Virus record (IMG/VR): IMGVR_UViG_3300032225_000532
Coordinates: 1 to 48,847 of that record
DNA length: 48,847 nt
Source of the DNA: a virus
Lineage: Duplodnaviria; Caudoviricetes
Strand: one strand, 5' to 3'
Numbering within the stretch: position 1 is the stretch's first letter; each line of letters opens with the position of its first letter. A program made the position numbers and the translations under genes. Below are positions 3,461 to 41,059 of this stretch, piece after piece. The notes below the pieces were generated by a model that was given only the letters and a program-made list of their open reading frames with translations, was not told the DNA's origin and did no database searches.

Positions 3461-3889
3461 TTAAACGTGGGTGATTCCACGGGGGTCTTGCACAACACCT
3501 TCCACTTGGTCATCGTTGATAAGGCGCATTTCCTGACCGTACATCTTGAATCGCGTACCTGCGTAGGTGCGAACCATGACGAAATCTCCCTGCTTGCACC
3601 AAGGGCCGCTAGGAAATTTCTCTTTGTCGGAGTATGCGTCTGGGCCAACTTTGACCACAAACAAAACTGCTGTGGTTACTTCTTCACGCTTCATCATGTC
3701 TTTTGACTTGAGAAGATTTGTGCCTTCAATCTTTTCATCGATTGCTGGCAGCACACATAACAGCTTGTATCCAGAGGGTTCTGGAAGCTGTTTAGCTTTT
3801 TCTGCATCTGTCATTTCTGCGTCAGGTTCTTCTGACGTTTGGATTGGCGCGGGCATTACTACCCCCGGAGGCAAAATGATGTTACTCAT
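3461..3889 (-). CDS. GroES/Cpn10-like co-chaperonin
   Basis: PSGYKLL..., VVKVGPDAY, GDFV...YAGTRFK...RLINDDQVEGVV match the Cpn10 pattern; start placed at MSNII (3889). Confidence 0.8.
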   Translation of the reverse strand: MSNIILPPGVVMPAPIQTSEEPDAEMTDAEKAKQLPEPSGYKLLCVLPAIDEKIEGTNLLKSKDMMKREEVTTAVLFVVKVGPDAYSDKEKFPSGPWCKQGDFVMVRTYAGTRFKMYGQEMRLINDDQVEGVVQDPRGITHV

Positions 3890-4076
3890 CTGATTCTTCA
3901 ACTTTCTTTAGCAAGGCCAATAGGTGGGACTCTGCGAGAGCTAGGCCTTGAATCACCCCGCATAGTTTTTGATACTCGTCAAAGGAACGACAGGCCCCAC
4001 CAGCCAAGTCGTCTGCATAGTTATTCATGTCCTCACGTATTTTGGAGCGCAATACGCTTGCGAAGTTTTCGTTCAT
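3882..4076 (-). CDS. Small conserved head-module protein
   Basis: 64 aa; overlaps the portal stop and the GroES start. Confidence 0.75.
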   Translation of the reverse strand: MNENFASVLRSKIREDMNNYADDLAGGACRSFDEYQKLCGVIQGLALAESHLLALLKKVEESDE

Positions 4077-10653: not shown

Positions 10654-11244
10654 ATGACCCTTGCCAAAATTTATGCTACCCGTGAAGAGTGGCTAACTGC
10701 TGCCGTGGAAGAATTCCGCGCAGTGTTCGCCGCTCAGGCCGTGCCTATCCCTCAGCGGGTGCGGGTGACGTGCGGTTTCCCGTCCACTGCCAAGCGCTCA
10801 GGTGCTATCGGTGAATGCTGGGCCGACACTGCATCGGCTGACAAGTCGATGGAAATCATGGTTTCCCCCGTGCTGTCCGATGCCTACCGTGTCGTTGACG
10901 TGCTGGTGCATGAGCTTTGCCACACAACCAAAGGGGCTATGAATCATGGTCTCAACTTCCAGCGGGTTGCAGATGCCATGCACCTGATTCCCTCTGCGAC
11001 TAAGGGCTACAAGGCCACTAGTGGCGGTGATGCGTTTAAACAGGCTTTCGGGGCCATCATTGACGGGCTGGGTGAGTACCCTCACGCCCAGCTATCGATG
11101 TCCACTCGCAAGGTACAGGCCACGCGAATGCTCAAGGCACTCTGCCCTACCTGCGGATACACCATCCGACTCACCGCCAAATGGGCCGCAAAAGGCTTAC
11201 CTACCTGCCATCTCGATGGCGACACTTTCACCCTTGGAGCATAA
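10654..11244 (+). CDS. SprT-like zinc metallopeptidase with C-terminal zinc ribbon
   Basis: 196 aa; VLVHELCH...NHG..F (HExxH plus third His); CPTCGY...PTCH. Confidence 0.8.
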   Translation: MTLAKIYATREEWLTAAVEEFRAVFAAQAVPIPQRVRVTCGFPSTAKRSGAIGECWADTASADKSMEIMVSPVLSDAYRVVDVLVHELCHTTKGAMNHGLNFQRVADAMHLIPSATKGYKATSGGDAFKQAFGAIIDGLGEYPHAQLSMSTRKVQATRMLKALCPTCGYTIRLTAKWAAKGLPTCHLDGDTFTLGA

Positions 11245-11246
11245 AA

Positions 11247-12764
11247 ATGGCAAATGACATCACCCTTGACCTGTCGGTCATTCCCTTGGCAGTTATCCGC
11301 ACGGCCTCTGACCGCTGGCTGGGCGCTGACAAATGGAGCAGCAAAACCAACGCCATCATTAAGCTGGCTGACTTGGTGAAGATGGGCGTTATCACCCTTG
11401 ACCAAATTCGGGCGGTTGCACCCCAGCCGCCTATCGCGCAGGGCAACTACACCATCCTGCCATATGGCATACAGGGTCAGCACTACCCAGCGCCTGATGC
11501 CTTTGATGTTGCTCTGAAGCCAGTAGCGCAGGTAGCGGACAACGCCAGTGCCACTGCGCTGGAAGCGTTGAGCAAGGCGCGGGCTATTGAGTCTTCTCTG
11601 CACTGCAAATTCGGTGATGTCAACACGGCGCTGGATGACCTGAGCAAGGCGGTTGAAAAAGACCTTGGCATTTTGGAAGAGACAGTGGCCCGTGAGATTG
11701 CAGCCATCACTTCCAAGCCGCTGGTTGACCCTGCCAAGGTATCTCAGGCGGTGACCGATGCAGTGGCAGCAGCGTTTAAACCCTTTGAGGCTGCGGTCGT
11801 GGCTGCTGGTGCTCAGGCTGCTGTGGGGTCGATGGTCTCAGTCTTGCGCACTGGATGCGAGACTGCAAGGGACGTGTTCGGTGTATCGGTGACAACCGCC
11901 GCTGGCAATGAGTTGCTGGTGAGCCTGTTCAATGACCCGTCTGCCCCTGCTGTTGACCCTTGCTTTGTGTGGACTGATGGCATCCTCAAACACCTGTTGT
12001 TGTCGCAGACAACTCAGGAAAACCTGTGGTTCGGCGGTGAGAAAGGCACTGGCAAATCGGAGACCGTGCGTCAGTTTGCAGCGAAGACTGGACGGGGCTA
12101 TACCCGTATCAACTTCAACAAATTCACCACGGCTGAGGACTTTGTCGGCGCAGTGGGCTTGGAGAACGGCGCTACGGTGTTCAAGATGGGCGATTTTCTG
12201 CGGGCATTCACTACCCCTGCAAGCCTGATTCTGCTGGATGAAATCACCAATGCAGACCCTGCGGTGCTGGCGGTGCTGAACGGTTTCCTAGAGACCAACA
12301 GCGCGGTCAACTATGGCGGTCAGGTATGGCGCAGAGCACCGGACGTGCTGGTGTTTGCGGCTGACAACACGCTGACCAACGGCGATGAGTCGGGACGGTA
12401 TGCGGGGACACGCACCATGAACAGCGCACTGGCTGACCGCTTTGCCCGACTGGTCGCGTTCAAGCATATGGACTTGGCTACTGAAATCGAGGCTGTTGTG
12501 CGCCACACTGGATGCCGCCCTGCCATTGCTGAACACGTCCTCAAGGCGGTTCACGCTTGCCGCGCCAAGGTCGAGAGCGGCGACATTGTCGATGCCCCGT
12601 CCATCCGGTCGGTGATGGCGTTTGTCCGGTCGGTTGAAGTGCTTGGTGTCGATGAGGCATGGGCTGCATCCATCGGTCACCGTCAACCATCGGAGTCGGC
12701 GACTGCAATTGCGTCAATCAAGGCGGCATATATCGATGCTGCATTTATTCAAAAAAATCTGTAA
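11247..12764 (+). CDS. MoxR-clade AAA+ ATPase (CobS/CbbQ/NorQ-like)
   Basis: 505 aa from MANDI; GEKGTGKS Walker A, ILLDE Walker B, AADN sensor, NSALADRF arginine finger. Confidence 0.9.
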   Translation: MANDITLDLSVIPLAVIRTASDRWLGADKWSSKTNAIIKLADLVKMGVITLDQIRAVAPQPPIAQGNYTILPYGIQGQHYPAPDAFDVALKPVAQVADNASATALEALSKARAIESSLHCKFGDVNTALDDLSKAVEKDLGILEETVAREIAAITSKPLVDPAKVSQAVTDAVAAAFKPFEAAVVAAGAQAAVGSMVSVLRTGCETARDVFGVSVTTAAGNELLVSLFNDPSAPAVDPCFVWTDGILKHLLLSQTTQENLWFGGEKGTGKSETVRQFAAKTGRGYTRINFNKFTTAEDFVGAVGLENGATVFKMGDFLRAFTTPASLILLDEITNADPAVLAVLNGFLETNSAVNYGGQVWRRAPDVLVFAADNTLTNGDESGRYAGTRTMNSALADRFARLVAFKHMDLATEIEAVVRHTGCRPAIAEHVLKAVHACRAKVESGDIVDAPSIRSVMAFVRSVEVLGVDEAWAASIGHRQPSESATAIASIKAAYIDAAFIQKNL

Positions 12765-12774
12765 GAGGTTCAAA

Positions 12775-14457
12775 ATGAAACGTTTAAACGGTATCCAGTT
12801 TCGCCAAGGCGTAGAACAGGCGGTCGGCAAGATTGCCTCTGACCTTGGCATGAAGGTCACCCTGCTGTGGAACGCTGGCATCTCCACTGCTGGCATTAAC
12901 AGCACAGGCATGATGCACCTTGCCAATGTCGCGGATGATGCGGTTGTCAACGCCGCACTGGTCGATAAGTACACGGGGTTTGTTGTGCATGAATTGCTGC
13001 ACCGCAAATACACCGACTTCAACGTGCGTGGCAACGGCGAATATCTTGATGCACTGCACAACGCCGTGGAAGACGCATGGATTGAGCGCACGGGTATCGC
13101 CGCCAAGCTGACAGGCAACATTGAGAACCTGCTGGTCAAGCTGGTCAATGGCATGGTCGATGAGGCTATGGCTACCGTCACCGACTGGTCAGACCCTCGC
13201 CAATACCCCTTTGTGCTGGCGGTCTACGCCCGTGGGTTTTCTAAGACTGTCCCGCTGGCGCAGGGGCTGGAGCCCATCTTCTCTGAGGCCAAGCGCCGTG
13301 TCACTAAGTGCAAATCCAGCACCGACACAATGAAGGTCGCGCAGTGGGTGTTTGACCAACTCAAGGCGCTCGACAAGCCTAAGGAAAAGCCTAAGGGTAA
13401 AAAGGGCGAGAAGGGTGACGGTCAGGGTGAAGGCCAAGGCGATGGCGAAGGCCAAGGCCAAGGTCAGGGCGAAGGTCAGGGTCAGGATGGCCCCTCAGAG
13501 GGCTCAGATGGGTCTGAGAGCGGCGAACAGGGTGAGGGTAAGGGTAAGGGTGCTGGTCAGGAAAAAACGGCTGGTAAGGCCAAGCCTGTCACCAGCGCAG
13601 ACCAAAAGGCCCGCGAGGTCGAGCCTACCCTTGAAGGCACTGGCACTGGCAGTGGCGGGGCTTATTCAAAGGAATACGATACCCGTGCAGTGGGATACCA
13701 CACTAGCGAACACAACCACCACCGCGATGTAACGGTGAGTGTGCCAGCGAAGATGCGGTATGAGGTCAAGCGCCTGTTTGAGAATTCAGCAACTGAGGAT
13801 TTCCAAACCAACCGCCGCGCAGGGTCGCTCAATGTCCGGTCGTTGCATAAGGTCGCTACCAGTGACCGTCTGTTTAAACGCCGCCTTGAGTCGGAGGGTA
13901 TCGACTCTGCCGTCATCATCATGCTGGATGTATCGGGGTCGATGTTCAACCCCCAGTACACCTATGACGATAACGGTCACGCCATGTATGACGCTAAGGG
14001 TGACTCAGTGATGCACCACTACATCGATGACGCGCTCAAGACTACAGCAGCCATGCTGGATACCTTGAACAAAGCAGGGGTGAAGACTATGGTCGTGACC
14101 TTTGGGTCGTGCGCCTCGGTGCTGAAACCTTGGGAGATGCCAGTACCCCGCGCCTTGGAGCACATTTCGCGGGTCGGTTCAGGTCAGAACACCAATGACT
14201 ATGCATCACTACGGTTCTGCCATGAGATGCTGCACGGTCGCCCTGAGTCTCGCAAGGTCGTGTTCGTTATCACTGACGGGCAAGGCGATGAACGGGCGGT
14301 GCGTGAGCAGTGCCATGCTGGCGAAAACCTAGGCATCTCAACCATCGGCGTGGGTATTGAACTCGATGTATCCGATTCCTATCCCGTCTCAGTGACGGTG
14401 CGGAATGCAGCCAACCTCGGTGAGGTTGCGTTTAAACAAATCAAACTGGCGGCGTGA
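12775..14457 (+). CDS. CobT-like protein: HExxH N-domain, G/E/Q linker, C-terminal VWA domain
   Basis: 560 aa from MKRLN; HELLH...NAVED; DVSGS MIDAS and VFVITDG; follows the MoxR ATPase. Confidence 0.88.
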   Translation: MKRLNGIQFRQGVEQAVGKIASDLGMKVTLLWNAGISTAGINSTGMMHLANVADDAVVNAALVDKYTGFVVHELLHRKYTDFNVRGNGEYLDALHNAVEDAWIERTGIAAKLTGNIENLLVKLVNGMVDEAMATVTDWSDPRQYPFVLAVYARGFSKTVPLAQGLEPIFSEAKRRVTKCKSSTDTMKVAQWVFDQLKALDKPKEKPKGKKGEKGDGQGEGQGDGEGQGQGQGEGQGQDGPSEGSDGSESGEQGEGKGKGAGQEKTAGKAKPVTSADQKAREVEPTLEGTGTGSGGAYSKEYDTRAVGYHTSEHNHHRDVTVSVPAKMRYEVKRLFENSATEDFQTNRRAGSLNVRSLHKVATSDRLFKRRLESEGIDSAVIIMLDVSGSMFNPQYTYDDNGHAMYDAKGDSVMHHYIDDALKTTAAMLDTLNKAGVKTMVVTFGSCASVLKPWEMPVPRALEHISRVGSGQNTNDYASLRFCHEMLHGRPESRKVVFVITDGQGDERAVREQCHAGENLGISTIGVGIELDVSDSYPVSVTVRNAANLGEVAFKQIKLAA

Positions 14458-28040: not shown

Positions 28041-28323
28041 CAAACTTCTGAAGGCTGTGCGGGAAGCGCCCTGCCAGCAATGTGGGATACAGAATGGCAC
28101 TGTGGTAGCTGCCCACTCCAATCAGATGCGTGACGGCAAGGGCCGGAGCCTCAAGGCAGCAGACTACCGTATCGCAGCCTTATGCCATTACTGCCACTAC
28201 GAAATTGACCAAGGCTCCAAGCTCACCCGAGAAGAACGTTTAAACATCTGGGAAGATGCTCACCGCAAAACTATAGGGTGGCTTTTTGAGAATGGACATC
28301 TTACGGTTGTGCCATCTTCCTAA
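28024..28323 (+). CDS. Zinc-binding HNH-like protein (DUF1364/DUF968-like)
   Basis: 99 aa; PCQQCG, VVAAHSN, LCHYCHYEID. Confidence 0.75.
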   Translation: MTYRNDKLLKAVREAPCQQCGIQNGTVVAAHSNQMRDGKGRSLKAADYRIAALCHYCHYEIDQGSKLTREERLNIWEDAHRKTIGWLFENGHLTVVPSS

Positions 28324-31300
28324 CAAGCTGAATGCTACTAGTTAGCATATCTTGAGTCTTGGCAATCTCATCCAGCATCTTGCGTTTCTCATCTGCGGGC
28401 ATTGGTGTAGAACGAATCATTGCAGCCTGAGCATTTAGTTTCAGCATTTGGGTATCTACCGAGGATACATACTTCTTCACCCCAAGCATGGAGATGTTCT
28501 CGTTTACGTATCCTGCAAGGTCAGGGCTGGCTTGCTTCTCCAGTAGATTGACTGTCCGCACGGTCTGGTCAACTGAGTGCTTCAGGTCATAGAAGGCACT
28601 GACCTGACCCCTTGCTTCAGGGTCAAGCAGGAACCGTTTTAATACGGGAGTCTGTTCAAACCGCTGGGATGCCTTGGGGTTGTCGCTACCGGCGCTGTAG
28701 ACCGCATCCATCACATCAGATAGGTAAGTGCCCATCGTTCCTGTGTAGCCCTTGTATATATGGTCAAGCATGATGGGAGATGTGCCGGTCTGCTTCCCAA
28801 GGAATTCAGCAAATTTGCTAGTGCTTGCGTTGACTTGGTACTCAGGAGCAATATTCTTCATTGCTTCGCTGACAATAGGACGTTGTGTAAACACTGAGTA
28901 GTTGTCCCGAGCTTCCATCAACGGAGCTACTGCCTGCGGTACAGGGTTAAACGCAAACGTGGATTGCAGCGCCCGCTTCATGGAGTCAGCCAAGTCCTTG
29001 GATGTATCTGCGCCGTAGTAGTAGCGATAGATACGTTCTGGGATTGTTTTAAACAACGTACCCACCTCAAATGGAATGGGTAGCTTGATACCCAATGAGG
29101 GTATGAGCCAGTAATTGTCCTTGGTCTCTTGTTCTTGCTTCTCGTAATCAGGGTCGCCCATGACTGCTGCGGCGTACATAGTACTCAAGGCCATGAGAGT
29201 TGCACCACGAATCAGCATAGCCTTTTGAACCTGCTTCTCGTAAGCAGTGGCGTTCTTGTCGTAGAACGGACGCACACCTGCGCGGAAGAACACATCCAAG
29301 CCTTGGACACGGGCGTTCAAGAACGGGATAGCAGCGGCTGCAATACGAACTACGGCAGACCTGCCCTTGCGGTTGAAGTTCATCACCTCCAAAGCGCGAC
29401 GGATAGCTTCTGCTTCGTTGCCAGTTTCCTTCAAGGTGGACTCGTAGACAGCTATGCGTGTTGCAGCATCGGATGCTCCAGTTCCATGCTCAAGGAAGTC
29501 CCAGACACCGGTAAATGGTTTAAACAGTTTCTCTGCCCCGCTCTGGGTTCCAGTTTTCTTACGGAGGTCTTTGGCAAGAGCCTCTGCTCCAGCTTCCACA
29601 TTGCGAGAAAACTCGTATCCACCCAATACACCTGCATTGAGCAAGGCTTGGTAGCTTGGTGAGCGGTGCATCATTACATCGCCAAAGTTCTTGACGGTGG
29701 AGACAACTGGATTGATGTTTGCACCGCTGGTGATGTACGCAGATACAGAGTCACGCATCATGTTAGCAAGCATGAATCCGGGGTCTTTGGTGACCAAGGT
29801 ACGGAGGATATCAGCGGGCTTTGCCAGAATGCTGAGGAACGGTAGTTCTGGCAGATTTAAACTGCTGACGGCCTCAACCCAGAGCTTGTCTGCGCATTGA
29901 TATGACACCTTCTTACCATTCTCCAGAATGGTGATAGTGTCTGGTGAAGAGGAAACCGCAGGGAGCTTTGTAACCATCCCCAATATCATTCCGTTCTCTA
30001 CAGCCTTCTTGGCTGCAACATTTTTCATACTTGCCTGAATGGCAGCTTGAGTGTTACGGACAATGGTCTCAAGGTAGTCCTCAATAGGGCCAGTGCCTTT
30101 ACCCGTTAGAGTTTTGGGAGCTTTAACTCCAGCAATGCTTTGATAGATGCTTGGGCCAAGCGTATTCTCACCATCCATCTGACGGTACAGCGGAAGGTAG
30201 TCTGAGTACTTCATAAACTCTTGACCGGCTGCTTGGGTGATGATGCCTGCATCTACTTGCATCTTGACTATGCCGTTGTTGAATTTAATCCATTCCTTCT
30301 GAACGTCAACAAACTCGGGATACTTTTGTTCCAATGTCAGCGCATCTTTGATTTCTTGTGGAGTCATCAACTCAAAGCGACCCTCACGGCTTAGTCGTGT
30401 TCCCCGTTTGGCTGCACTCCAAATTTGATACGACCGGTAGATGTCAGGGTCACCGTGGCGGGCCAACGGAGAGATGATTTCCACAAGACCTTTGACAGTA
30501 CCGTTCAGGGTACTGACGGTGAAATAACCATTCTTCAGTACTACAGTACCACCCATGCGGTCGCCAACACCCAATGCAGACGCTGTAACACCAGCAGCCA
30601 TATCAGAGTTCAAAGATGCCCAATGTGCGCTTTGGTCTGCTAGTAGTTCAATGCCGCCCATTTGCTTGGCGACCATCTTGTCGTAATCGTTTAAACGGTT
30701 ATAACGGTCAAGGAAGTTTTGACGAATGTAACTAAATGCCTCTGGTGCTAAGGCGTTGGTGATTCGCTCTGCGAATCCCTTAGTCTCCCGTGGAGGAGTG
30801 ACCCTGCTCATGGTAGCCAAGATGGCTGCGCCATTGGGCATACTGCTTATATCTTTCTTGACGTTAGTGCGTAGGCTGGCACGGGCTGGTTCGCGGTTTT
30901 CTTGTTCACGTTCACGCCTACCAGTTTCTTCGTTCATCCGCACCATTAGTGCGTTTACTTTGTTAAAGTCTTTGCCAACGTAATCTTCTACCGCTTTGTT
31001 TAATCTGCGGAATGACATTGTTTGTTCGCGCTTTAGGTCTTGCGGACGCAAGTCACTGGCAACACGACCCGAGGCCAAATCCTCTGCACGGTTTACTTTT
31101 TCATGCAAATCCCAAATGTTTTGAGGAACCCAGTCCGGTGCTGTTCGCAGGCTCTTGCGAATATCAGGGTTGTTGATATCGTATGTACCTTCATTGCCGG
31201 TGGCAGACTTAATTTGGCTTGGCTCGTAGACGGCTAGGTTTTTACGACCTTGCTCAAGTATGTAGAAACCATCAAACCCAGCATCTTTGATAGCTTGCTG

Positions 31301-34300
31301 TACATCTTCACTTTCAATGGCGTTCCAATTGCCAACCTTGATAACGGGGCCAATGTCTTTGTAGCGAACCATTCTTCCATCGCCAAGCATGATGGGATAG
31401 TCGCCTACATTGTCCTTGAGTGAAGCAACAACTTTGTTGACATGTGCAGAATTTGCATAGTCAAACGGGTTCTCTGCCTTCACGTATGCAGGGACAATGT
31501 TTGGCCCGCTAGGCAGCATCTCTTTGTATGCCTCTACAAGCCTATCCGCAGCTTCACCAACAGGCTTGTCGGATTGAAGACTTTTAATAATGCTTACAGA
31601 CGTTTTGGTCTTGCCGTATTCTGACTTGACATTTTTGATTGCAAGCTGGACTGCATCCTTCATCTGCTGAGGAGTCAAAAACTCTTCAGCATGGCTTGCC
31701 ATCCAGTCAACAGACATGTTGCTGAACTTACCCGCAAATTCTGGGTCTTCCGTAAGAAAAATAGCCCCGGCCTGCTTAGATTTAAACGCAGTAATGTCTC
31801 GGGCTGTACCGTGGTACATGACCTTGGGATTGCCATTAGCGTCTACAACCTTGCTGTCACCAAACCACTGTTTAAACTCAGCAGTCTGTGGTGCAGTGCG
31901 CAAGCTGGCGCGAACATCTGGGGTGATGTTTGTATCGGTAGCCCACTGGGGCAGTAGACCAATCTTTTGGTCTGCATACTTAGTCTCTTCTCCAGACGCA
32001 GTCTTGTTGAATTCTGCGTAGGGGCCAAAGTTAACCACTGAATTCTGACCGCGAGTTCCAGCAGTCATAGCTCTCGCTGCAAGAGGTGAGTACATGCGGA
32101 CATGAGACTGGAATGCGTTCTCCTCTCCCTCTGCCCTGAAGCCAAAGCCTTCCTTGACATGACCATAGAAGTCATGCGTTGCTCTAAATACTTCAACCAC
32201 CCTAGCTGGTCTGCCGGAAATCATAATGTCCGTCAGGGCTAGTGCGGGGTTTTTCTTAATCTGCTCTTCAGTGATTGCTGCCGAGCCAAACCCACCATCA
32301 GCAGGGAAGACATACAGATGGTTATTGTTTATTACATCAAGTATGGCGTTGCGCGGATTCCCATAGGGGTCTCTGTTGTTGGGCATGAACTCAATAGTGA
32401 TGCCGGTCTTGAGCATTGCCTTGTATTGAGCAATGGTCTCATCAGCCCAAGCATCGTAAGCAGCTTTGACCTCTGGCGCTGACGGGTTGTCCTTCATCTG
32501 CAAGAATGCATCAGCCAACCTCTTGGAGAAGGCTGGGTCTATCTTGTAGTAGCTTGCCTGCTGCCGATAGGGAATACCCGATTTCTCTGCGTGAAGAATA
32601 GCGGCTTCCCGTGCCGGGACATAGGGGCCAAAGGTGACCTCTACTCCATCGACTTTTGCTTTTGCGGGGAGCCCTTCAACAGGCTCCTCAACATAGGGAT
32701 ACTTTGCCCTTGTCTCGTCATCCAATAACCGTACGCTTCTTCGTACTCCTCCTTGCTTGGGAAGTCGCTCTGCTTCGGCTTTGAGTTCTCTAGCTCTTTG
32801 ATTTTGTTCCTTAGTTCCATATCCTACGCCCTCGTTAAAGTATTTTTCAACAGCATCGTCCTGAGCTTTGATTAGGTCGTCATAGTCTTCAAAGTATTGG
32901 TCAGGAGATTTAACAGATGGAGGCGTATCATTTTCAGGGTCATAGACCATGTAAACAACATCAGGCTCACCATTATTAAACTCTTGGAATGTTTTTTTGT
33001 CCCAGTTATCTGGAATGTACTCTTCATTCCATGCGCTTCTTCCGGTTACTTTAAAGCCATTGTCATAATAAATCTGAGGGAGGATAGTATCAAATGCATC
33101 TAATTTTCTGCCGCCTTCTTGGACAGCTAATTGCAAAATAGATGAGGCAGCGCCTTTGTGCTCTGGAGAAGTGAACACAGAAACAATATCATTGTTCTTT
33201 AAAGCAAATCCAGCTTTACCATCCTTCGTAAGGAAGGTACGCATTTTTGAATACTCTTCTTCAGAGTACACGCCTACGGCAGCACCGTATTTGCTGCTAG
33301 ATTTTGATTGCTCTATAGAGTCCTTGAATGCATCAGCATCCTCAGGATTCATTTCATAGAAGGTTGGGGATTTGTGATTGAACTCACCAACCGTGTTTTT
33401 GAAGTCTTCTGTCGGCACGTAGGCCGCAATGGACTCTCGTCCTAGTACCCGAACTCCTTCGCCATCTCTAAAGCCTTCTCGCGTGTGAGAGTCGGGTGCT
33501 GCTTCATTGCGTCCTCTATAGGATTGAATGGCTGTTCGGAGGCTTGCCCGCTTTTGGTCATCTCCTTGACCGCGTTGATTAGATACCTCGACCGCTCTTG
33601 CGCCGTCATTCCCGCCGTTAGGTTGTCCAGTGAAGACCACAGAGGGTCTCTCTCGTCCAGTACCCTCTCGGGATTTCGCAATGATTGCTTCTTCGTATCC
33701 GATGTCATCTGCTGTCCTTCCAGTTAGCTTTGCGTATAACCGTTTTTCATAGTACCACAGCGCAGCTTGAATATCCGCAAGGGTCAGCTTGATGCCATCT
33801 TTCGCAAGAATACTTTGAGCTTTTTTAGCCGCATCGTACATAAACCTGCGGTCTCCAGCGCCAAACGGCGCTTCCTCAAGCATCTCGTACTCGTTCTTGT
33901 GGATGGTGTTTGCCATCTTCTCAAGGCGGTGCTCAAACTCCAACTGTGGGTACGCGCTACCAGCAACCCTTTTGGCTTTTGCAGTCCATGCAGGTTTCTT
34001 TGCGTTGGTGTCTGGCTCTTTAGACTTGGCAAGGTGCTCAAGTTCGGTTGTGTAGCCGTACTCCTTATACTTGTTACGCAGCGGTATGCTGGCTGCAACA
34101 ACCTCTTCTCTGGTTGCTTCAGGCATACCCATCATTTCGCGGAACTTATCAATCGATGCCTCAGTCGCCCGAGGGATAAGGAGACCACGCATCCTATTGA
34201 TGGAGCGAGTCCACCACAAGTCCATCGTCAGGTAGCCTTCTGAACCGGACAGGTTTGCATAGAAAGCGCCCAGCTTGGGGCCAAAGTAAATAGCTGCCGC

Positions 34301-37300
34301 TGGAACTCTGCTGTTTGCTAGGTAGTCATTGTTGGTTTTCTCACCTTTACTACGCAGGAACGCATTCATCTCCTTGACAGTAATTTCTCTCCTCAACTCA
34401 TTTTCAAAATTTGCCTCACCATAATCATTCATCAAATCTTGGATAGCCACAAGATTCTTTTCAAGAGCAGTGGGTCTGCGGTTACCCATTGCAACCAGTG
34501 GCTTACCCGTACGCAAATCTGCATACAGTTTAATGGCGTTGTCGATGTTCTTATCAACCCGCTCCCCATTGGATGTGACTGCTACAAGGGCGGAGAATAC
34601 TGAACGTGCATATTGACTCTCAGCCAACTCAGGAAAACGAGCAGCCAGCAATTTGACTGCGTTGGGGTAGTTGTGTGAATACCATCCAGTGCCTGTTCCG
34701 GTCTTGGATTTGGTTGTCAGTTGATAAGAAACCTCATCAGCCATAGCGTCAGCAATCCGCTGGACATCTTCAGGAGTGTGATTTTTCTCATCCATCCGAC
34801 CGTGCTCTTGCAGGGTCTTGTTGTTTAAAGCAATGGCAACGTCACGGACATTGTTGCTGTTGGCAGCGCCCTTCTTCTTGACAGTCTCCAGCCCAAGCTC
34901 ATTCTGAGCAAATGCAGTGTTCTGCTCCATGATGGCTCGTGTAGAGAGTGGAACACCCTCCTCTGCTGTACGCAGGCTTGGCTTGGCCTCTTCATTCTCA
35001 GCAGCCTTGGTAGCCTTCAACTCACCACGCTCCACCTTGCCAAAGATATCCTCAGCGGTCTCATAGCCTGCACCGTTCAATGCAGCACGCAGATTGCGGA
35101 AGAACTTGCGCATCGCATCCAGAAGCTGGGCAAACAATCCCTTGGGAGCGCCGTTTACATCAAAATCAGCAAATGCGTCGGCAATGGCCTCCTCACGCAC
35201 CTTGTCCATGTCGCCCTTGTAGTACTTCTTGTAGGCATCGTAACGGGACTCCTCTCCCGCCTTCAGGGGACTACCGTCTCTGCTGCGTTGTTTGAGGTAC
35301 TTGTCTGTCCATTCCTTGTCTGCTTTTTCCTCCAGAATCCTCCACTGACCGGGCGTAAAGAATCCCAAGTCCTTTAAACCGTGGATGGTCTCATGGCGCA
35401 GGACTCGGACAGGGTTAGCTGCGTCCAAAGCCACTGTGACGACACTGGCTCCATAGGAGCCTTCATCTACCATAGCCTCTTCAATCTTGAGGGCTACATC
35501 ACCTAGACCAAACTTGCGCAGCATAGGCAGGAGCTTGGCATGCAGGGCTGTAGCCTCTGCGCTTGGGCCTTTGGGTGCGGGAGGTTTAGGAGCGGGCAGA
35601 GCCAACACAGGCTTCTTGCGGCGTTCCTGTTCCTTCTTTAAACGGTTAGCAAACCCCGGGGCTTTGGTCTGGGTAGCCAACTCATTTAAACGTTCCTCTG
35701 GCAGGTTCTCCAGAGCATGCTGCTCTGCTTCTTGCCGGGTGTTGAATGCCTTCTCTTCAACGCCCTTCTCTTTGACGGTGAATGTTTTACGGTTGGTAGG
35801 CTTGCCAGCCTTCTGCACAGTCACAGGCTTTTGCAGCATCTGCTTCTTAGCATTCAGGTTTTGAATAGTCTTGTTGGCTTTATCGACAACACCAGCGTGA
35901 CGGGCCGCTGCCTGTGTGTACTGCGGTGTATTGAACTTGCCTTCTGCCTCCATAGCATCAAGAGCCTTTTGGCTGTCAGCTACGGTGGCGTTTTCCTTGT
36001 TGATTGACTTGTCTATCTGCTGGATGGCGGGCGCTGCGTCCTTGCCTAGCTTCTCAGCCTTGGCGGTGGCCTCTGCCTCATCATTGGTGGCGAACAGCAT
36101 CTTGCCGTCGCGCATGACGTTAAAGCCTGTACCTTCTGCCGGAGCAGTGCCTTCTTCAATGTTGAACTCGGCCTGAGCGCCCTTTTGTTGATAGGTAACC
36201 TCGTTTTTGGAATTCAGGTCAATGTCACCATTGCGGTTTGCTTCACGGAACAGAGTCTGTACATCCGCGTCATTCTTCAGGCCGGTCTGGTCTTTGATGA
36301 CCTGATTAGCTTCATCTATCGATACAGGCTTGGCGATAGGTTTCTCGCCTTCCTTTACCACCTCTGTTCCGCCTAGCTTGCGGTCTTCCACAAGCTTTTG
36401 GAGAGCAGCCACTGCCTTGTCGTATTGCTCTTTGCTGTAGTCAGTAGCGTTACGTTTCTGCGGAAGAATCTGGGTTTCTTCAAATCTTGGCAGGGAAGAC
36501 AATGCTGTAAACGCAGAATGAAGCTGAGGCTGAGTCAGTTGCTCAAGCTCTGCATCTCCAGTTGAACGGCGCAGGAAGTCTTTGAAACCCTCTGTAGTGG
36601 TATCAATGTTCTTTTGTTTAGCTACCTCAAGGACATCGGTGGGTTTGTATGTGATTTCACCAGTGTGTCCGCTCTTGGCTGCAATCAGACTGCTCAGGTC
36701 TGCCTGTTCAGCTTCAGGTAGCTGATTGGGCATTGCATTGCGGATGTCTTCAATTGAATAGGTATCAAGCGCAGGCTTGCCTGCTTTCTTGCGTTGTGTA
36801 TCTATGTACTTGGCAACCGTCGGGGCTCTGCTGGCAAGCTCTTCCTTAGTGAAGTTACCCAACGGGTTGTCCAGCATGTCTCCAACTGCCAGATTAGGTT
36901 TGACCGGAGGGGTTACTGTAGTCTCTTCAGCCTTGGGCTGTACCTTCAAGAGGCGGTTGTATTCAGCAGCCAAAGCTGTAACGCCGGGGCTCATCTCTTT
37001 GAGTTGGGCGGTAATTTCTTGGTTGTGTAAACGGTCTGCTGTCTCAGTCTCAGAGCCAGCTACAACCTTACGCAGTTGACCCTTCAGGTCATTCTTTGCT
37101 TGCTCTGCTGCCTTGTATTCGGCGGAGAGAGTCTGGAAATACTCAGGGGAACTCTTCTTCCGCTCTTCTTCAGCGGCGGCTAGGGCATCCAGCTTGAGTT
37201 GTTCCTGCTGGGCTGCTTGTTGCTTTGCAGCCTCACCCATGTCATAACGGGCCTGTGCATGTCCACGCTCTACATATCGACCGGCAGGGCCTAATACTCC

Positions 37301-38236
37301 AGCAAGTACTGCCCCACCCAAGAAGTTGTCAAAGTATTCCTGACGAGCTTCTGGGTCAGTGATGCTCAATCCTGCTTGGGCACGCTCAAAAACTTGTTGG
37401 CCTGCTTCAGTCAGGCCTTCAATTCCCATCGTCTTACCGGTAGTGAGCAAGTAGTCAGCAGCAGTCTTCTTCAGACCTTCTTCGGCAAAATTCCTAACCT
37501 CTTCCTTGCCAAGCTTTAAACCAGCACTCTCAAACATTTTCCCAAGACCGGGCATCATGTGCAGGCTGAATGTGTCCAGCGCTGCCTGAGGAATGGCAGC
37601 TAGTGCTGCGGCAGTGAGGTTTGTTTCCTCAAGGCTCTTGCCTTCATCCTGTTGGCGTGAAAGATTGGAGCCGGTGAATTGAGCCGCTGACGTAGCCCCA
37701 GCCAGCCCAGTTGCCACTCTAGTGCCAGCTTTGGTAAGGCCATAGCGAGTAGCTGTTCCAAGGCCTAATTCTGCTGCTGGGAGCGCCTCAGCTAATCCAG
37801 CGGCTACAGCAGCCTCAGGAGCCAATGCCACACCACCAGCCACTGCCGCACCAGCCAAAGCGGGAGCAGCCATGTATGGCAATGAGCCACCCAGCAGTTC
37901 TTTTACGTGGGTAAATGGCGCTTCTGCCCAACCTTCTTCAGTTGGTTTAAACGTGTCAGCTTGATATTTCTTTTGCTCTGCAATGTACTTCTCTGCTGCG
38001 GGCAAATCCATCAGACCGGTACGACCAGCCAGTCCAGCAACGTCTGCCTTGAGTGCAGAGTACCCAGCCTTTAGGGCAGGGAAGAACCCGCCTTCTGGGT
38101 GCGCTTCAGGCTGGGCAGGTTTTGTCTCAAACGCCTCAGGGTATTTCTGCATAGCACGTTGCCATGCATCCCTTGGGTCTTGTCCCTCTGCAACAGGGTA
38201 ATACGCGCCATTGGGTAGAGGTAGGTAGTTAGCCAT
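28301..38236 (-). CDS. Giant polyvalent virion/ejection protein: HExxH peptidase, HhH-like, GNAT-like, HDxxGH, ART-like and LPD38-like modules
   Basis: 3311 aa at the end of the ejection-protein cluster; HETIH; GPKLGAFYANL..MDLWW..QAALW; KLDAFD..LPQIY..NGF; HDFYGH..GEENA; MYHGT..GFDG..QIKS; KLPIPFEVG LPD38-like C-terminus. Confidence 0.85.
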   Translation of the reverse strand: MANYLPLPNGAYYPVAEGQDPRDAWQRAMQKYPEAFETKPAQPEAHPEGGFFPALKAGYSALKADVAGLAGRTGLMDLPAAEKYIAEQKKYQADTFKPTEEGWAEAPFTHVKELLGGSLPYMAAPALAGAAVAGGVALAPEAAVAAGLAEALPAAELGLGTATRYGLTKAGTRVATGLAGATSAAQFTGSNLSRQQDEGKSLEETNLTAAALAAIPQAALDTFSLHMMPGLGKMFESAGLKLGKEEVRNFAEEGLKKTAADYLLTTGKTMGIEGLTEAGQQVFERAQAGLSITDPEARQEYFDNFLGGAVLAGVLGPAGRYVERGHAQARYDMGEAAKQQAAQQEQLKLDALAAAEEERKKSSPEYFQTLSAEYKAAEQAKNDLKGQLRKVVAGSETETADRLHNQEITAQLKEMSPGVTALAAEYNRLLKVQPKAEETTVTPPVKPNLAVGDMLDNPLGNFTKEELASRAPTVAKYIDTQRKKAGKPALDTYSIEDIRNAMPNQLPEAEQADLSSLIAAKSGHTGEITYKPTDVLEVAKQKNIDTTTEGFKDFLRRSTGDAELEQLTQPQLHSAFTALSSLPRFEETQILPQKRNATDYSKEQYDKAVAALQKLVEDRKLGGTEVVKEGEKPIAKPVSIDEANQVIKDQTGLKNDADVQTLFREANRNGDIDLNSKNEVTYQQKGAQAEFNIEEGTAPAEGTGFNVMRDGKMLFATNDEAEATAKAEKLGKDAAPAIQQIDKSINKENATVADSQKALDAMEAEGKFNTPQYTQAAARHAGVVDKANKTIQNLNAKKQMLQKPVTVQKAGKPTNRKTFTVKEKGVEEKAFNTRQEAEQHALENLPEERLNELATQTKAPGFANRLKKEQERRKKPVLALPAPKPPAPKGPSAEATALHAKLLPMLRKFGLGDVALKIEEAMVDEGSYGASVVTVALDAANPVRVLRHETIHGLKDLGFFTPGQWRILEEKADKEWTDKYLKQRSRDGSPLKAGEESRYDAYKKYYKGDMDKVREEAIADAFADFDVNGAPKGLFAQLLDAMRKFFRNLRAALNGAGYETAEDIFGKVERGELKATKAAENEEAKPSLRTAEEGVPLSTRAIMEQNTAFAQNELGLETVKKKGAANSNNVRDVAIALNNKTLQEHGRMDEKNHTPEDVQRIADAMADEVSYQLTTKSKTGTGTGWYSHNYPNAVKLLAARFPELAESQYARSVFSALVAVTSNGERVDKNIDNAIKLYADLRTGKPLVAMGNRRPTALEKNLVAIQDLMNDYGEANFENELRREITVKEMNAFLRSKGEKTNNDYLANSRVPAAAIYFGPKLGAFYANLSGSEGYLTMDLWWTRSINRMRGLLIPRATEASIDKFREMMGMPEATREEVVAASIPLRNKYKEYGYTTELEHLAKSKEPDTNAKKPAWTAKAKRVAGSAYPQLEFEHRLEKMANTIHKNEYEMLEEAPFGAGDRRFMYDAAKKAQSILAKDGIKLTLADIQAALWYYEKRLYAKLTGRTADDIGYEEAIIAKSREGTGRERPSVVFTGQPNGGNDGARAVEVSNQRGQGDDQKRASLRTAIQSYRGRNEAAPDSHTREGFRDGEGVRVLGRESIAAYVPTEDFKNTVGEFNHKSPTFYEMNPEDADAFKDSIEQSKSSSKYGAAVGVYSEEEYSKMRTFLTKDGKAGFALKNNDIVSVFTSPEHKGAASSILQLAVQEGGRKLDAFDTILPQIYYDNGFKVTGRSAWNEEYIPDNWDKKTFQEFNNGEPDVVYMVYDPENDTPPSVKSPDQYFEDYDDLIKAQDDAVEKYFNEGVGYGTKEQNQRARELKAEAERLPKQGGVRRSVRLLDDETRAKYPYVEEPVEGLPAKAKVDGVEVTFGPYVPAREAAILHAEKSGIPYRQQASYYKIDPAFSKRLADAFLQMKDNPSAPEVKAAYDAWADETIAQYKAMLKTGITIEFMPNNRDPYGNPRNAILDVINNNHLYVFPADGGFGSAAITEEQIKKNPALALTDIMISGRPARVVEVFRATHDFYGHVKEGFGFRAEGEENAFQSHVRMYSPLAARAMTAGTRGQNSVVNFGPYAEFNKTASGEETKYADQKIGLLPQWATDTNITPDVRASLRTAPQTAEFKQWFGDSKVVDANGNPKVMYHGTARDITAFKSKQAGAIFLTEDPEFAGKFSNMSVDWMASHAEEFLTPQQMKDAVQLAIKNVKSEYGKTKTSVSIIKSLQSDKPVGEAADRLVEAYKEMLPSGPNIVPAYVKAENPFDYANSAHVNKVVASLKDNVGDYPIMLGDGRMVRYKDIGPVIKVGNWNAIESEDVQQAIKDAGFDGFYILEQGRKNLAVYEPSQIKSATGNEGTYDINNPDIRKSLRTAPDWVPQNIWDLHEKVNRAEDLASGRVASDLRPQDLKREQTMSFRRLNKAVEDYVGKDFNKVNALMVRMNEETGRREREQENREPARASLRTNVKKDISSMPNGAAILATMSRVTPPRETKGFAERITNALAPEAFSYIRQNFLDRYNRLNDYDKMVAKQMGGIELLADQSAHWASLNSDMAAGVTASALGVGDRMGGTVVLKNGYFTVSTLNGTVKGLVEIISPLARHGDPDIYRSYQIWSAAKRGTRLSREGRFELMTPQEIKDALTLEQKYPEFVDVQKEWIKFNNGIVKMQVDAGIITQAAGQEFMKYSDYLPLYRQMDGENTLGPSIYQSIAGVKAPKTLTGKGTGPIEDYLETIVRNTQAAIQASMKNVAAKKAVENGMILGMVTKLPAVSSSPDTITILENGKKVSYQCADKLWVEAVSSLNLPELPFLSILAKPADILRTLVTKDPGFMLANMMRDSVSAYITSGANINPVVSTVKNFGDVMMHRSPSYQALLNAGVLGGYEFSRNVEAGAEALAKDLRKKTGTQSGAEKLFKPFTGVWDFLEHGTGASDAATRIAVYESTLKETGNEAEAIRRALEVMNFNRKGRSAVVRIAAAAIPFLNARVQGLDVFFRAGVRPFYDKNATAYEKQVQKAMLIRGATLMALSTMYAAAVMGDPDYEKQEQETKDNYWLIPSLGIKLPIPFEVGTLFKTIPERIYRYYYGADTSKDLADSMKRALQSTFAFNPVPQAVAPLMEARDNYSVFTQRPIVSEAMKNIAPEYQVNASTSKFAEFLGKQTGTSPIMLDHIYKGYTGTMGTYLSDVMDAVYSAGSDNPKASQRFEQTPVLKRFLLDPEARGQVSAFYDLKHSVDQTVRTVNLLEKQASPDLAGYVNENISMLGVKKYVSSVDTQMLKLNAQAAMIRSTPMPADEKRKMLDEIAKTQDMLTSSIQLVRKMAQP
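32641..32820 (-). CDS. Overprinted +1-frame small protein nested in the giant gene (59 aa)
   Basis: MELRNKIKELENSKPKQSDFPSKEEYEEAYGYWMTRQGQSIPMLRSLLKGSPQKQKSME; GAGGGCGTAGGAT before the ATG; spans a module junction. Confidence 0.6.
   Translation of the reverse strand: MELRNKIKELENSKPKQSDFPSKEEYEEAYGYWMTRQGQSIPMLRSLLKGSPQKQKSME
33442..33708 (-). CDS. Overprinted +1-frame small protein nested in the giant gene (start uncertain; 33609 would give 55 aa)
   Basis: ...DPLWSSLDNLTAGMTAQERSRYLINAVKEM...NPIEDAMKQHPTLTREKALEMAKEFGY; amphipathic-helical; spans a module junction. Confidence 0.6.
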   Translation of the reverse strand: MTSDTKKQSLRNPERVLDERDPLWSSLDNLTAGMTAQERSRYLINAVKEMTKSGQASEQPFNPIEDAMKQHPTLTREKALEMAKEFGY

Positions 38237-38244
38237 GAGCTTTG

Positions 38245-40125
38245 TTAGGGGTTATAGATTGGCCCATTGGGCTTGCTAACAACTGGAGGCATAAGTGAAG
38301 ACCTCACAACATTCTTGTGCATGTTCCACATATCAACATCTGCTTTTGGATTGAATGCTGGGTTATTCATATTATCTTTTAGATAATCTTCTGCTTTTAT
38401 AAGCCTAGCTTTATCCAGCATACCTTCTTGTCTGCCAGACATAGCAATGTTATAACCTGCGACAACATCACCTTTACCCAGCGCTGCAAATAGTTTCTGT
38501 TGGTCTCCGGGCATTCCTGCAATCTCTCTATGCAAGGCAAGACCTGCCGCAGCCTGAGCAGCAGCAGCAGCGCGTGCTTTGGCGCTTTCAGTAGCTTGAA
38601 ATACTTGATTTGCCCGATTCTCACCAGATTGGTATTCTCTATTTCTAGCAGCTTCAGCCGCGTGATATGCAATTTGCTTATCAGCAGTCTTATCAGCAGC
38701 AATAGCAGCAAACAATGTTTGTGCATCAGCCCTGCTAAGTTTGTACATTTCCATAAGAGAAGAAATACCTTCATTGGTAGAAGCAATTTTTCCTTCTTCC
38801 ATAGCAACTTTTGCAGCTTCAATCTCTTTGCTGGACATGTTATTGAGGTTAAACCGCAAATCATCATGTGCGTCTTTGGCATCCTCAATCTTCTGACGAG
38901 CGGCTTCGTTCATCTTCAAGCCTTCGGTGTACTGACCAACGCCCTTCTGTGCGCCTTCAGCAATACCAGCGAGACCTTTGCCGGTCGATTGCATCATCGA
39001 CAAACCAGCGTTAATCAAAGACATGTTTAGGTTTACATCGTCTTGTTGATTTAAACGTTCTTCACGTTGTTTGATGCGCTGCTCTTTCCCGCTGAGAAGG
39101 CCCTCAATTCCTGCTTTACGTTCGTTTGCCCCAGCAAGTTTTAAATTTGCCATTTCTTCACGAGATGCTCTATTTGCTGCATGTCCCTCTGCACTTGGGT
39201 CAACTATTGGGCCTTGGTCATCTTTAGCTTGTTGAAACAAGGTTCTCAGTCCTTCGCCCTGTGCTGGCACATAAGGTACTTCTTTGTATGTGGACGCTAC
39301 AGGTGCAGTAACGCTAGTGTCAACACGAGGGCCACCGCCGCCTGTAGAAGGCGGTTGAGATGAAGGAATAGCTCGTTCAGGTGAATTAACGGCTCCTCGA
39401 TTTCCTTGACCACCGCCTGCTCCAGAATTTGGTAGTGGTATTTTGTTCCCATAATTACTACCGGTGTACTGACTCTCAGGACTATAGTCCTTTGCTGAAG
39501 AAGTTATGGGAGTAGAAGCCACGGGAATGTTTATTCCTGCGCGTATTGCTTGCGCTCTTTCAACTCCAGTTAACGGTTCATTTCGGCTTATTTTGGCTTT
39601 TAAGTAATTTGTACCTGCATCTGTAAGGCCTGCATTTACCGATTGAAGCATTTCTTTGATGCCTGTTCCAATTGATTCACCAGTTTTTCCAGCATTCTGA
39701 TACATGGCTGCTGTTTCAGCGGATATAGGTAAACCTCTGACTTGACTGCCATTTTCCCCACTGAACGCCACAATGCCACCACCAGCGGCACGTACCACCT
39801 TCTGCATATTAGGCGCAGGTATCTGAGCAATTCCTGTTTCTTCAGGCAGCTTGGCCTGTGGCTCAGGGGCCATGCTTGCCACCACCTGTTGGTTCACAGG
39901 AGGAGGAGCGGCTCCAGTTTCTTGAGCAGCCAAAGACTGAGCTTGCTTGCTGACTTGGTTATCTACAAACTTTGCAGCGGACAACATCATGGGGTCATCC
40001 ATGTGCAACTGCGCAAACTGCTTGCGCTGTCCGGGGGTCATTTCTATCAGATGGGCAATGACGGCATTGATATTCATCGGGCCGGTAATGCCAGCCGACT
40101 GGGGGTTCAATGGCTGAAGATTCAT
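38245..40125 (-). CDS. Internal virion/ejection protein
   Basis: 626 aa; A/Q-rich helical with coiled coils; position in the cluster. Confidence 0.7.
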   Translation of the reverse strand: MNLQPLNPQSAGITGPMNINAVIAHLIEMTPGQRKQFAQLHMDDPMMLSAAKFVDNQVSKQAQSLAAQETGAAPPPVNQQVVASMAPEPQAKLPEETGIAQIPAPNMQKVVRAAGGGIVAFSGENGSQVRGLPISAETAAMYQNAGKTGESIGTGIKEMLQSVNAGLTDAGTNYLKAKISRNEPLTGVERAQAIRAGINIPVASTPITSSAKDYSPESQYTGSNYGNKIPLPNSGAGGGQGNRGAVNSPERAIPSSQPPSTGGGGPRVDTSVTAPVASTYKEVPYVPAQGEGLRTLFQQAKDDQGPIVDPSAEGHAANRASREEMANLKLAGANERKAGIEGLLSGKEQRIKQREERLNQQDDVNLNMSLINAGLSMMQSTGKGLAGIAEGAQKGVGQYTEGLKMNEAARQKIEDAKDAHDDLRFNLNNMSSKEIEAAKVAMEEGKIASTNEGISSLMEMYKLSRADAQTLFAAIAADKTADKQIAYHAAEAARNREYQSGENRANQVFQATESAKARAAAAAQAAAGLALHREIAGMPGDQQKLFAALGKGDVVAGYNIAMSGRQEGMLDKARLIKAEDYLKDNMNNPAFNPKADVDMWNMHKNVVRSSLMPPVVSKPNGPIYNP

Positions 40126-40129
40126 TTTG

Positions 40130-41059
40130 TTATCCCATGCTATTGATGAGAAGCTGAGGCAATCCGCCTTTTACCAAGCCACCTTTGGCAAAAACTGGTG
40201 ATGGATTATTTTTAGTGTACTGGTTATATGAACCAAGTACACCAGCGGCTGCTGTACCTAATCCTGCTACTTGATTAAGCATAGATGGTGCTTGTTGATA
40301 AACATTGGTTCCGGTCTGAGTTAGCGGCGCACCACGAATAATGTCTGACATGAAACCGAGGTTTTTGAACGGGTAGTTCTGTTCCGCAGCGTAGTTCTGC
40401 TGGCCCACATTGAGCAAGTTCTGGGCTTGTTGCTGTTGCTGCCCGCCAATTTGGTTTTGAAGTCCCAATGCAGCTTGGCCCTGCTGTCCCAATAGGGAAT
40501 ACCCTTGGAGTCCTTTGGCTTGGTCTGCGTTGTATTGCTGCTGGGCAGAGTTGTATGCGTTCTGCATACCAGTGGCTGTAATGTCACCTTTTTGCAATGC
40601 AAGATTGCGCTCACGTTCTGCCCGCATGATGGCATCACGGCTACCGCCAAAAGCTCCTGCTTGGGTTGCTTGGGCTTGTTGCTGGGTTCCAGCTACTTCC
40701 GATTGCCGCTGCGCATCCCGTTGCTGCTGTTCAATGACGCTTTGGATGTAGGGCGACATGTACTGCTGGGCTTGTTCCTGCCCAAACCGCTGACCGGATA
40801 GCGCTTGTATTCCTTGCAGAGCAGCTTGGGAGTAGTTAGCCCCCTCACCTCCTAAACCTTCAGCTTGTTTAAATGATTGCTGCTGCAAGGGGTTAAACGC
40901 AGCTACTTGCTCACCACTCAAGCCGTACTTCTTGGCCCAATCTTGGTAGCTTTGATATGGCTGAGAAGAAGCTGCTTGGGCTGCTCCAAGAAGTCCCTCT
41001 GCATAAGGGGCAATTACCGGCGCAAAGCCTGTTTGGTACTGTACTGTTTGGTCTGCCAT
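40130..41059 (-). CDS. Internal virion/ejection (DNA pilot-like) protein
   Basis: 309 aa; Q/G/A-rich; YMSPY, AGAFGGSR; hydrophobic C-terminal GLGTAAAGVLG. Confidence 0.75.
   Translation of the reverse strand: MADQTVQYQTGFAPVIAPYAEGLLGAAQAASSQPYQSYQDWAKKYGLSGEQVAAFNPLQQQSFKQAEGLGGEGANYSQAALQGIQALSGQRFGQEQAQQYMSPYIQSVIEQQQRDAQRQSEVAGTQQQAQATQAGAFGGSRDAIMRAERERNLALQKGDITATGMQNAYNSAQQQYNADQAKGLQGYSLLGQQGQAALGLQNQIGGQQQQQAQNLLNVGQQNYAAEQNYPFKNLGFMSDIIRGAPLTQTGTNVYQQAPSMLNQVAGLGTAAAGVLGSYNQYTKNNPSPVFAKGGLVKGGLPQLLINSMG

Follow-up and report, generated by a model that had tools for sequence, protein, structure and literature searches.

A repeated serine-centred tag at cargo-module joints of a giant phage protein, a candidate processing site for its embedded zincin-like domain

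The stretch of DNA analyzed here (the window) is the 48,847-base virus record IMGVR_UViG_3300032225_000532, which is ~79% complete and contains terminase, portal, capsid, primase-helicase and lysis genes. The last gene of a structural block is an open reading frame (ORF) encoding 3311 amino acids (aa), in which a short motif centred on SLRT recurs downstream of a predicted HExxH peptidase. The original prediction read this ORF as a possible self-processing polyprotein, an interpretation that is partly supported by the analysis described below. Three points go beyond it: cassettes recombine at the motif, the consensus is wider than SLRT, and self-processing had already been put forward for such proteins (Iyer et al., 2017).

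The giant ORF and its motif copies

The main features of the ORF, from N-terminus to C-terminus, are as follows (pLDDT, predicted local distance difference test).

28301..38236, minus strand: whole ORF, 3311 aa; polyvalent, probable DNA-ejection protein
35558..38236, minus strand: N-terminal region, aa 1-893; Ala/Gly-rich stretch near aa 120-190, without motif enrichment
34994..35557, minus strand: zincin-like metallopeptidase domain, aa 894-1081, delimited by the family profile
35381..35395, minus strand: HETIH (HExxH), aa 948-952; intact in 150/150 representatives
35177..35194, minus strand: EEAIAD, aa 1015-1020; likely third zinc ligand helix, a role taken from Iyer et al. (2017; PMC5512222)
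34967..34984, minus strand: motif 1, KPSLRT, Ser1087; pLDDT <50
33533..33550, minus strand: motif 2, RASLRT, Ser1565; pLDDT <50 in both models, at the model end each time
32726..32743, minus strand: motif 3, RRSVRL, Ser1834, degenerate; pLDDT <50; RRSLRI/RRSIRL at the equivalent joint in relatives L177 and L024
31895..31912, minus strand: motif 4, RASLRT, Ser2111; pLDDT <50
31142..31159, minus strand: motif 5, RKSLRT, Ser2362; pLDDT <50; ~13 aa beyond the end of the ADP-ribosyltransferase (ART) fold alignment
30866..30883, minus strand: motif 6, RASLRT, Ser2454; long predicted helix, pLDDT ~75-80; the adjoining module 5 has no homologue rows
28301..30877, minus strand: C-terminal 858-aa module (C-module) with LPD38 (aa 3028-3198, positions 28643-29155; PF18857, E 9e-37); conserved core

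The serine positions first given for the five SLRT copies and for the degenerate RRSVRLL are all correct, as are the position of HETIH, the Leu and Arg codons quoted for the copies and the LPD38-like nature of the C-terminus. A feature missing from the original prediction is that the serine codon is AGC at 6/6 copies. The motifs define pieces of 478, 269, 277, 251 and 92 aa, followed by the 858-aa C-terminus. SLRT occurs five times in the 3311-aa protein, where 0.04 copies are expected by chance, and SLRTA four times; in 300 shuffles, a post-hoc comparison, some 4-mer reached five copies in 4/300 and a 5-mer reached four copies in 0/300. The strict motif has 0 copies in the 12 other window proteins, head and partner ejection proteins included, and we therefore rejected a head-maturation site as unlikely.

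The motifs had been placed between recognisable domains, and their burial inside folded domains had been named beforehand as the observation that would count against self-processing. Burial was not seen for five of the six copies, which lie at pLDDT <50 with the fold alignments falling between motifs; motifs 1, 3, 4 and 5 occupy such segments between confident or aligned domains. The pattern of repeated sites between autonomous domains and outside folds, typical of a self-processing polyprotein, thus holds for these five and is uncertain for motif 6, whose helix was predicted without alignment depth. The module boundaries, together with the LPD38 match and the predicted ART and HhH-GPD folds, agree with placement between domains, but the word recognisable was too strong at the sequence level, where the whole protein matches only ART-PolyVal and LPD38 in Pfam.

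Motif and cassettes across the family

Four scans yielded 186 loci which, with the window, gave 187 ORFs matching the zincin profile and 90 representatives; removal of four distant representatives (score <= 150) left 86, of which 53 were complete with a C-module. Across these 53 homologues, [KR]xS[LIVM][RK] was found 189 times in the middle region against 11.7 expected, compared with 7 (7.0 expected) in the N-terminal region, 2 (1.6) in the zincin and 4 (8.8) in the C-module. Motif enrichment is confined to the cargo region of family proteins. The last copy was at most 12 aa from the start of the C-module in 39/53 proteins, and the first copy at most 13 aa from the end of the zincin in just 20/53.

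Because this pattern was derived from the same data, a domain-anchored count was made in addition: 258 family proteins were reduced to 163 representatives, and the core [KR]xS[LIVMF] was counted at anchors placed without reference to the motif. The core motif was present ahead of 111/142 ART starts and past 107/131 ART ends (18/142 and 10/131 in shifted control windows), at 106/114 C-module starts, and within 63 aa past the zincin in 112/162. Many of the anchored joints without it have a variant in which Ala, Gln or Asn replaces Ser (RYALR, RYQIR, RYNLR). These variants bear on the idea that the serine is itself a self-cleaving nucleophile, acting by an N-to-O acyl shift with no peptidase. Ser is the most conserved motif position, in keeping with this idea; however, its replacements at anchored joints retain the basic and aliphatic flanks, and the sites lie in predicted disordered linkers with no strained fold, making serine self-cleavage hardly credible. 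In five relatives (L032, L034, L070, L080, and L139), a motif copy is also found directly upstream of the zincin (KKSLREV at 1319 in L032), and in these the zincin itself could be excised.

Splitting the 86 proteins at the motif produced 250 modules, arranged in varying order and falling into 26 multi-member groups and 17 singletons (43 groups). Protein alignments ended within 10 aa of a motif in 776/2052 cases, compared with 122 at random, and DNA alignments within 20 nucleotides in 81/225, compared with 7 at random; the pairs are non-independent in both counts. In the DNA comparison, upstream flanks of the motif follow the upstream module and downstream flanks the downstream module. The motif bounds cargo cassettes that are swapped among relatives, with breakpoints at the motif. 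Module 5 of the window has a 94.7% identical copy in relative L027, while the zincins of both proteins are 60% identical. No stand-alone module copies were detected in the family loci examined, where the matches were pieces of one frameshifted gene (L013/L065); in this single contig (L013 10172-12695 / L065), the giant gene is split into frameshifted pieces with breaks within modules, through assembly error or decay.

These breakpoints suit an explanation in which the tag is a recombination seam alone: all joints would trace back to a few ancestors, with the peptide merely a tolerated linker or domain cap. The tracking of adjoining modules by the flanks on each side also fits, as does an excess of AGY serine codons (230/259 sites against a 33% background) that points to common descent of the joints. 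Third-position identity is likewise slightly raised for the motif overall (0.525 against 0.451), and more so at the Ser (0.635) and -2 (0.546) codons. However, within genes the motif Leu (+1, 0.43) and +2 (0.45) codons are at background (0.45), all six Leu and all six Arg codons occur, Ser is retained through TCN at 29/259 sites, and indels directly past the motif leave the motif itself intact. Descent of the joints alone also leaves unexplained the different amino-acid motif at equivalent joints of cyanophage MinM2 (see below), and we consider a seam without a function for its peptide improbable. The codon evidence indicates that the seam is real and that the peptide is also under selection, given the TCN sites, the full use of Leu and Arg codons and the background identity at +1 and +2; the earlier claim of conservation at the protein level holds in this form, with Ser kept via two codon families. 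The tag also supplies the short homology for recombination, since each cassette must bear it at both ends.

The zincin-like domain as a candidate reader of the tag

The HExxH helix and downstream Glu helix of the window domain match the pattern given for zincin-like metallopeptidases (MPTases) (Iyer et al., 2017; PMC5512222). RHExxH and EExIxDAF are invariant in 50 alignment rows, including E1015, E1016, and D1020, and zinc-dependent peptidase activity is predicted on this basis. In the structure models, the strand region at aa 913-940 has pLDDT <50 and no zincin was among the fold matches of the two-domain model. A predicted complex of the zincin, zinc and motif-4 peptide (score 0.14, mark 0.32) was used neither for nor against cleavage. 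Among diverse LPD38 giants, an HEx2-4H motif is present in 95/99 (from 128), compared with 5.7 expected, and three of the four exceptions are short (1254-1679 aa). Two other arrangements were noted: P0006, a 4460-aa protein with four zincin copies, lacks a C-module match and has no strict motif past its best-scoring copy; and L099-L106 come from Bryobacterales metagenome-assembled genomes, which each have several distant zincin copies, in ORFs ranging from 400 to >4500 aa, and the motif is absent from the three representatives listed.

We favour, with a probability of about 0.55, the reading that [KR]-x-S-[LIVM]-[RK] is a site for the protein's own predicted zincin, which would cut at S|L and free the modules, probably after ejection. 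Evidence for this includes the confined enrichment, the protein-level constraint, the agreement of variants within proteins, the different tag that accompanies other zincins in MinM2, the intact HExxH of the family, the HEx2-4H motif of nearly all diverse LPD38 giants, the lack of the strict motif in the other window proteins, and the low pLDDT at five of the six copies. In the proposed mechanism, swappable cargo modules of a probable virion ejection protein meet at the tag, and the embedded zinc protease would cut there, releasing a glycosylase-like enzyme, an ART and three modules without known function as separate proteins, probably once they are in the host. Zincins such as thermolysin prefer an aliphatic side chain at P1', and by analogy S|L is the likely scissile bond.

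Support for a single reader comes from comparing motif variants at the ART end with those at other joints of the same protein. In 91 proteins, agreement reached 0.597 for the +2 class (0.456 permuted) and 0.718 for the -1 class (0.582 permuted), both with p ~5e-4 in a test that ignores phylogeny, which tempers its weight. A scan for zincin columns that track the motif variants yielded lineage markers alone. On co-variation of site and peptidase, which the original prediction had proposed to test among homologues, the observations are lineage-specific variants, such as the ES[ASK]R/DSAR types of four relatives, alongside some zincin proteins that have no repeat. Outside the family, repeats are visible by eye in distant proteins (LFSR-type in P0293, AFSR in P0331, RYSR in P0287), and modest peaks of 11 and 9 per 50-aa bin, against 3.3, lie near the last zincin of 74 non-family proteins.

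Several observations weigh against cleavage by the zincin. Some family members with long middles (P0112, P0135, and P0142) have no strict motif, and the DIR[YF]S tail that follows ART domains is also present in distant proteins, so may belong partly to the ART domain. Few alignment rows span the joints, which may by itself lower pLDDT there, and motif 6 is within a predicted long helix. A dead zincin was not found in any of the 150 family representatives; as 150/150 keep HExxH, loss of the motif could not be tied to loss of the zincin. Outside the family, the strict motif is not enriched in aggregate (19 against 21.1 expected and 14 against 22.6) and [FY]S[RK] is enriched weakly (65 against 46.6 and 50 against 40.0). 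The BA3, VvAW1 and Ruegeria 45A6 giants have HExxH with no evident repeat, although the lack of a repeat in distant proteins is a weak negative, since an unbiased search for repeats, run protein by protein, failed to recover the motif even within the family. The strongest counter-example is the virion RNA polymerase (vRNAP, gp50) of phage N4, in which an HExxH domain precedes a large helical C-terminus and the protein is packaged unprocessed (PMC5512222); in the recombinant full-length protein, polymerase and HExxH-bearing C-terminal domain were imaged together (PMC13434306).

A rival explanation gives the tag a different reader. As a recognition peptide, it could be read by a host protease, by another protease of the phage, by a chaperone or by the ejection channel; alternatively, it could dock without hydrolysis to the zincin-like domain, ordering the modules for packaging or refolding. 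Protein-level constraint and within-protein variant agreement would suit any single reader; the N4 HExxH domain stays uncut, and the C-terminal domain there binds and inhibits the polymerase (PMC13434306), while a preprint on phi24B assigns a comparable peptidase to peptidoglycan (10.64898/2026.04.10.717836). Against such a reader, the motif differs with zincin lineage, as MinM2 illustrates, the 12 other window proteins are motif-free, and no head-protease gene was identified among 23 scanned ORFs of this ~79% complete record. We regard a reader other than a cleaving zincin as unlikely, though deserving of serious attention.

If the embedded zincin does cut, it would be a new metalloprotease with sequence specificity, and the protein would show a natural way of sending several enzymes through a phage tail. 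More tentatively, and at somewhat less than even odds, LPD38-type podophage ejection proteins in general may carry a protease-and-tag system in which a zincin reads a lineage-specific five-residue tag that is also a recombination seam. If so, any small gene that gained the tag at both ends would become a plug-in payload, packaged, injected, and freed in the host, and the result would be a cassette array at the protein level, in which the tag would mark the exact limits of dozens of uncharacterised early effectors. The tag gives exact boundaries for candidate early phage effectors, i.e., 250 modules in 43 groups, most without a Pfam match.

Cargo, context, and comparison with known systems

The five modules between the window motifs, and the genes upstream of the ORF, are as follows.

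33545..34978, minus strand: module 1, 478 aa; HhH-GPD DNA-glycosylase-like fold, DUF7178-related
32738..33544, minus strand: module 2, 269 aa; phrog_2563 (unknown function), E 1.7e-9; GNAT-like by eye, unconfirmed
31907..32737, minus strand: module 3, 277 aa; phrog_3170; HDFYGH and GEENAF; common to cyanophage MinM2
31154..31906, minus strand: module 4, 251 aa; ART-PolyVal ADP-ribosyltransferase, PF18760, E 4e-19
30878..31153, minus strand: module 5, 92 aa; predicted helical, recently exchanged cassette
38245..41059, minus strand: two genes upstream, 626 and 309 aa; probable partner ejection proteins, motif-free

The modelled fold of module 1 carries the HhH turn and conserved Asp of the HhH-GPD superfamily. 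In VIA-align, HhH-GPD-type enzymes fill the top 23 rows, at Z 9.0 to 5.9 against 4.5 for the row that follows; the best match (Z 9.0) has a root-mean-square deviation (rmsd) of 4.3 over 190 aligned residues, ~aa 1155-1515. Cut out alone, the module matches DUF7178 weakly (E 9e-4), and GPK-x-G and T-x-D-x-W are invariant among its relatives. Its fold matches include 8-oxoG glycosylases and the glycinyltransferase gp46 of phage PaMx11. On this modelled fold, module 1 is a putative injected DNA glycosylase or base-modifying enzyme, and it would supply a fold for DUF7178-related proteins.

Module 4 scores 70.1 bits against PF18760 (gathering cut-off 31.2) and resembles the anti-CRISPR protein 6kyf (Z 7.4) and PARP catalytic domains. 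The GNAT label for module 2 was not confirmed: ten sequences, module 2 with nine homologues, had no Pfam GNAT match, and the module 2 model is poor (pLDDT mostly <60). In module 3, HDFYGH followed by GEENAF resembles an HExxxH zincin with Asp in place of the catalytic Glu, and the module may be a second metal-binding or zincin-like unit. A counterpart is found in MinM2 (HDYFGH) and in P0286, the sole large LPD38 protein without HEx2-4H. Among other module representatives, 12/35 have a Pfam match at E <= 0.01, including GP88, DUF7178, ParB, L5 gp82, YunG-like and RelA/SpoT. NCBIfam searches gave no match and Atlas searches returned solely unnamed or DUF7178 viral clusters, with no named cluster for module 3; Pfam and NCBIfam searches with aa 1-893 also gave no match. 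Foldseek returned no match at E <= 0.001 for either multi-domain model, and PDB sequence searches with the zincin, C-module, middle region and module 1 returned nothing meaningful. A match to the cyanophage A4 pre-ejectosome (9k3a; PMC12002296), at an rmsd of 32, was dropped as a long-helix artefact.

Genes upstream of the giant ORF match virion structural, tail fibre, holin, endolysin and weak ejection-protein families; the 309-aa protein matches the DNA ejection protein phrog_4287 weakly (E 1.8e-4). The C-module (~850-aa query) matches 51 phage records at 22-29% identity, and in two annotated podophages its homologues are short proteins (1254 and 1280 aa) encoded after tail-tube or stabilisation, acetyltransferase and internal virion genes. 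From this gene context and these homologues, the 3311-aa protein is a probable ejection protein with cargo in its middle, presumably packaged and ejected. Elsewhere in the window, a CobT-like VWA protein adjoins a MoxR/CobS-type AAA ATPase (11181-14457, plus strand), and a GroES-like co-chaperonin (3461-3901, minus strand) has the portal on one side and head genes on the other.

The window protein joins unrelated domains in one polypeptide (ART-PolyVal, LPD38, HhH-GPD fold, and HExxH domain) and is encoded among the late or virion genes of a phage, as are phage-type polyvalent proteins, which are likewise large and multidomain with MPTase, ART-PolyVal and LPD38 (Iyer et al., 2017; PMC5512222). 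Processing of polyvalent proteins into functional units by the MPTase has been a hypothesis since that work, and the papers searched define no site for it. In the family described here, a specific tag can be mapped to the joints between cassettes, where exchange takes place, and its variants differ by lineage. The available part of that study gives no cleavage motif, although its supplementary alignments may show one; the available part of PMC9503650 adds nothing further on processing sites, and our literature searches, which covered sources other than subscription journals, returned no paper naming the motif. With the tag now named, the self-processing hypothesis is directly testable, including in a cultured cyanophage.

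Among individual phages, N4 gp50 is likewise an ejection protein with an N-terminal membrane region, middle cargo, HExxH domain, helical C-terminus and flexible linkers (PMC13434306); in contrast, its cargo is single (the RNA polymerase), and the window zincin and C-module match no PDB chain by sequence. PTXU04_00025, an LPD38 giant critical for infection (10.1101/2023.09.18.558157), matches the window C-module at 28% but has an HExxxH zincin, no repeated motif and none of the window modules; it carries RHEIIVHY at 1161, and the available part of its paper gives no confident annotation beyond LPD38. Another LPD38 giant, phi24B gp47, is a virion protein proposed to be ejected (10.64898/2026.04.10.717836).

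A parallel in tag architecture is MinM2 / Pag-Yong1 (OQ594354, OL906435), which has a zincin, a module 3 homologue (BLASTP E 4e-75 with a family member), an ART, an LPD38 C-module and a repeated Ser-centred tag at joints. It differs in having two zincins undetected by the window-family profile and in its tag, xESAR, found at 1125, 1329, 1546 and 1918, i.e., past module 3, on both sides of the ART, and ahead of the C-module. No relatives of the MinM2 zincins were found in the viral contig scan. The records OQ594354, OL906435 and PP438419 state different hosts but are all 65,014 long with identical match scores and may be one phage. Since it is cultured, MinM2 is a testable model.

Viral polyproteins of the picornavirus 3C type combine one ORF, an embedded protease and short repeated sites between autonomous domains. 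The window protein shares this layout but would pair its putative cleavage with a predicted metallopeptidase, delivery in the virion and hypervariable, exchangeable cassettes.

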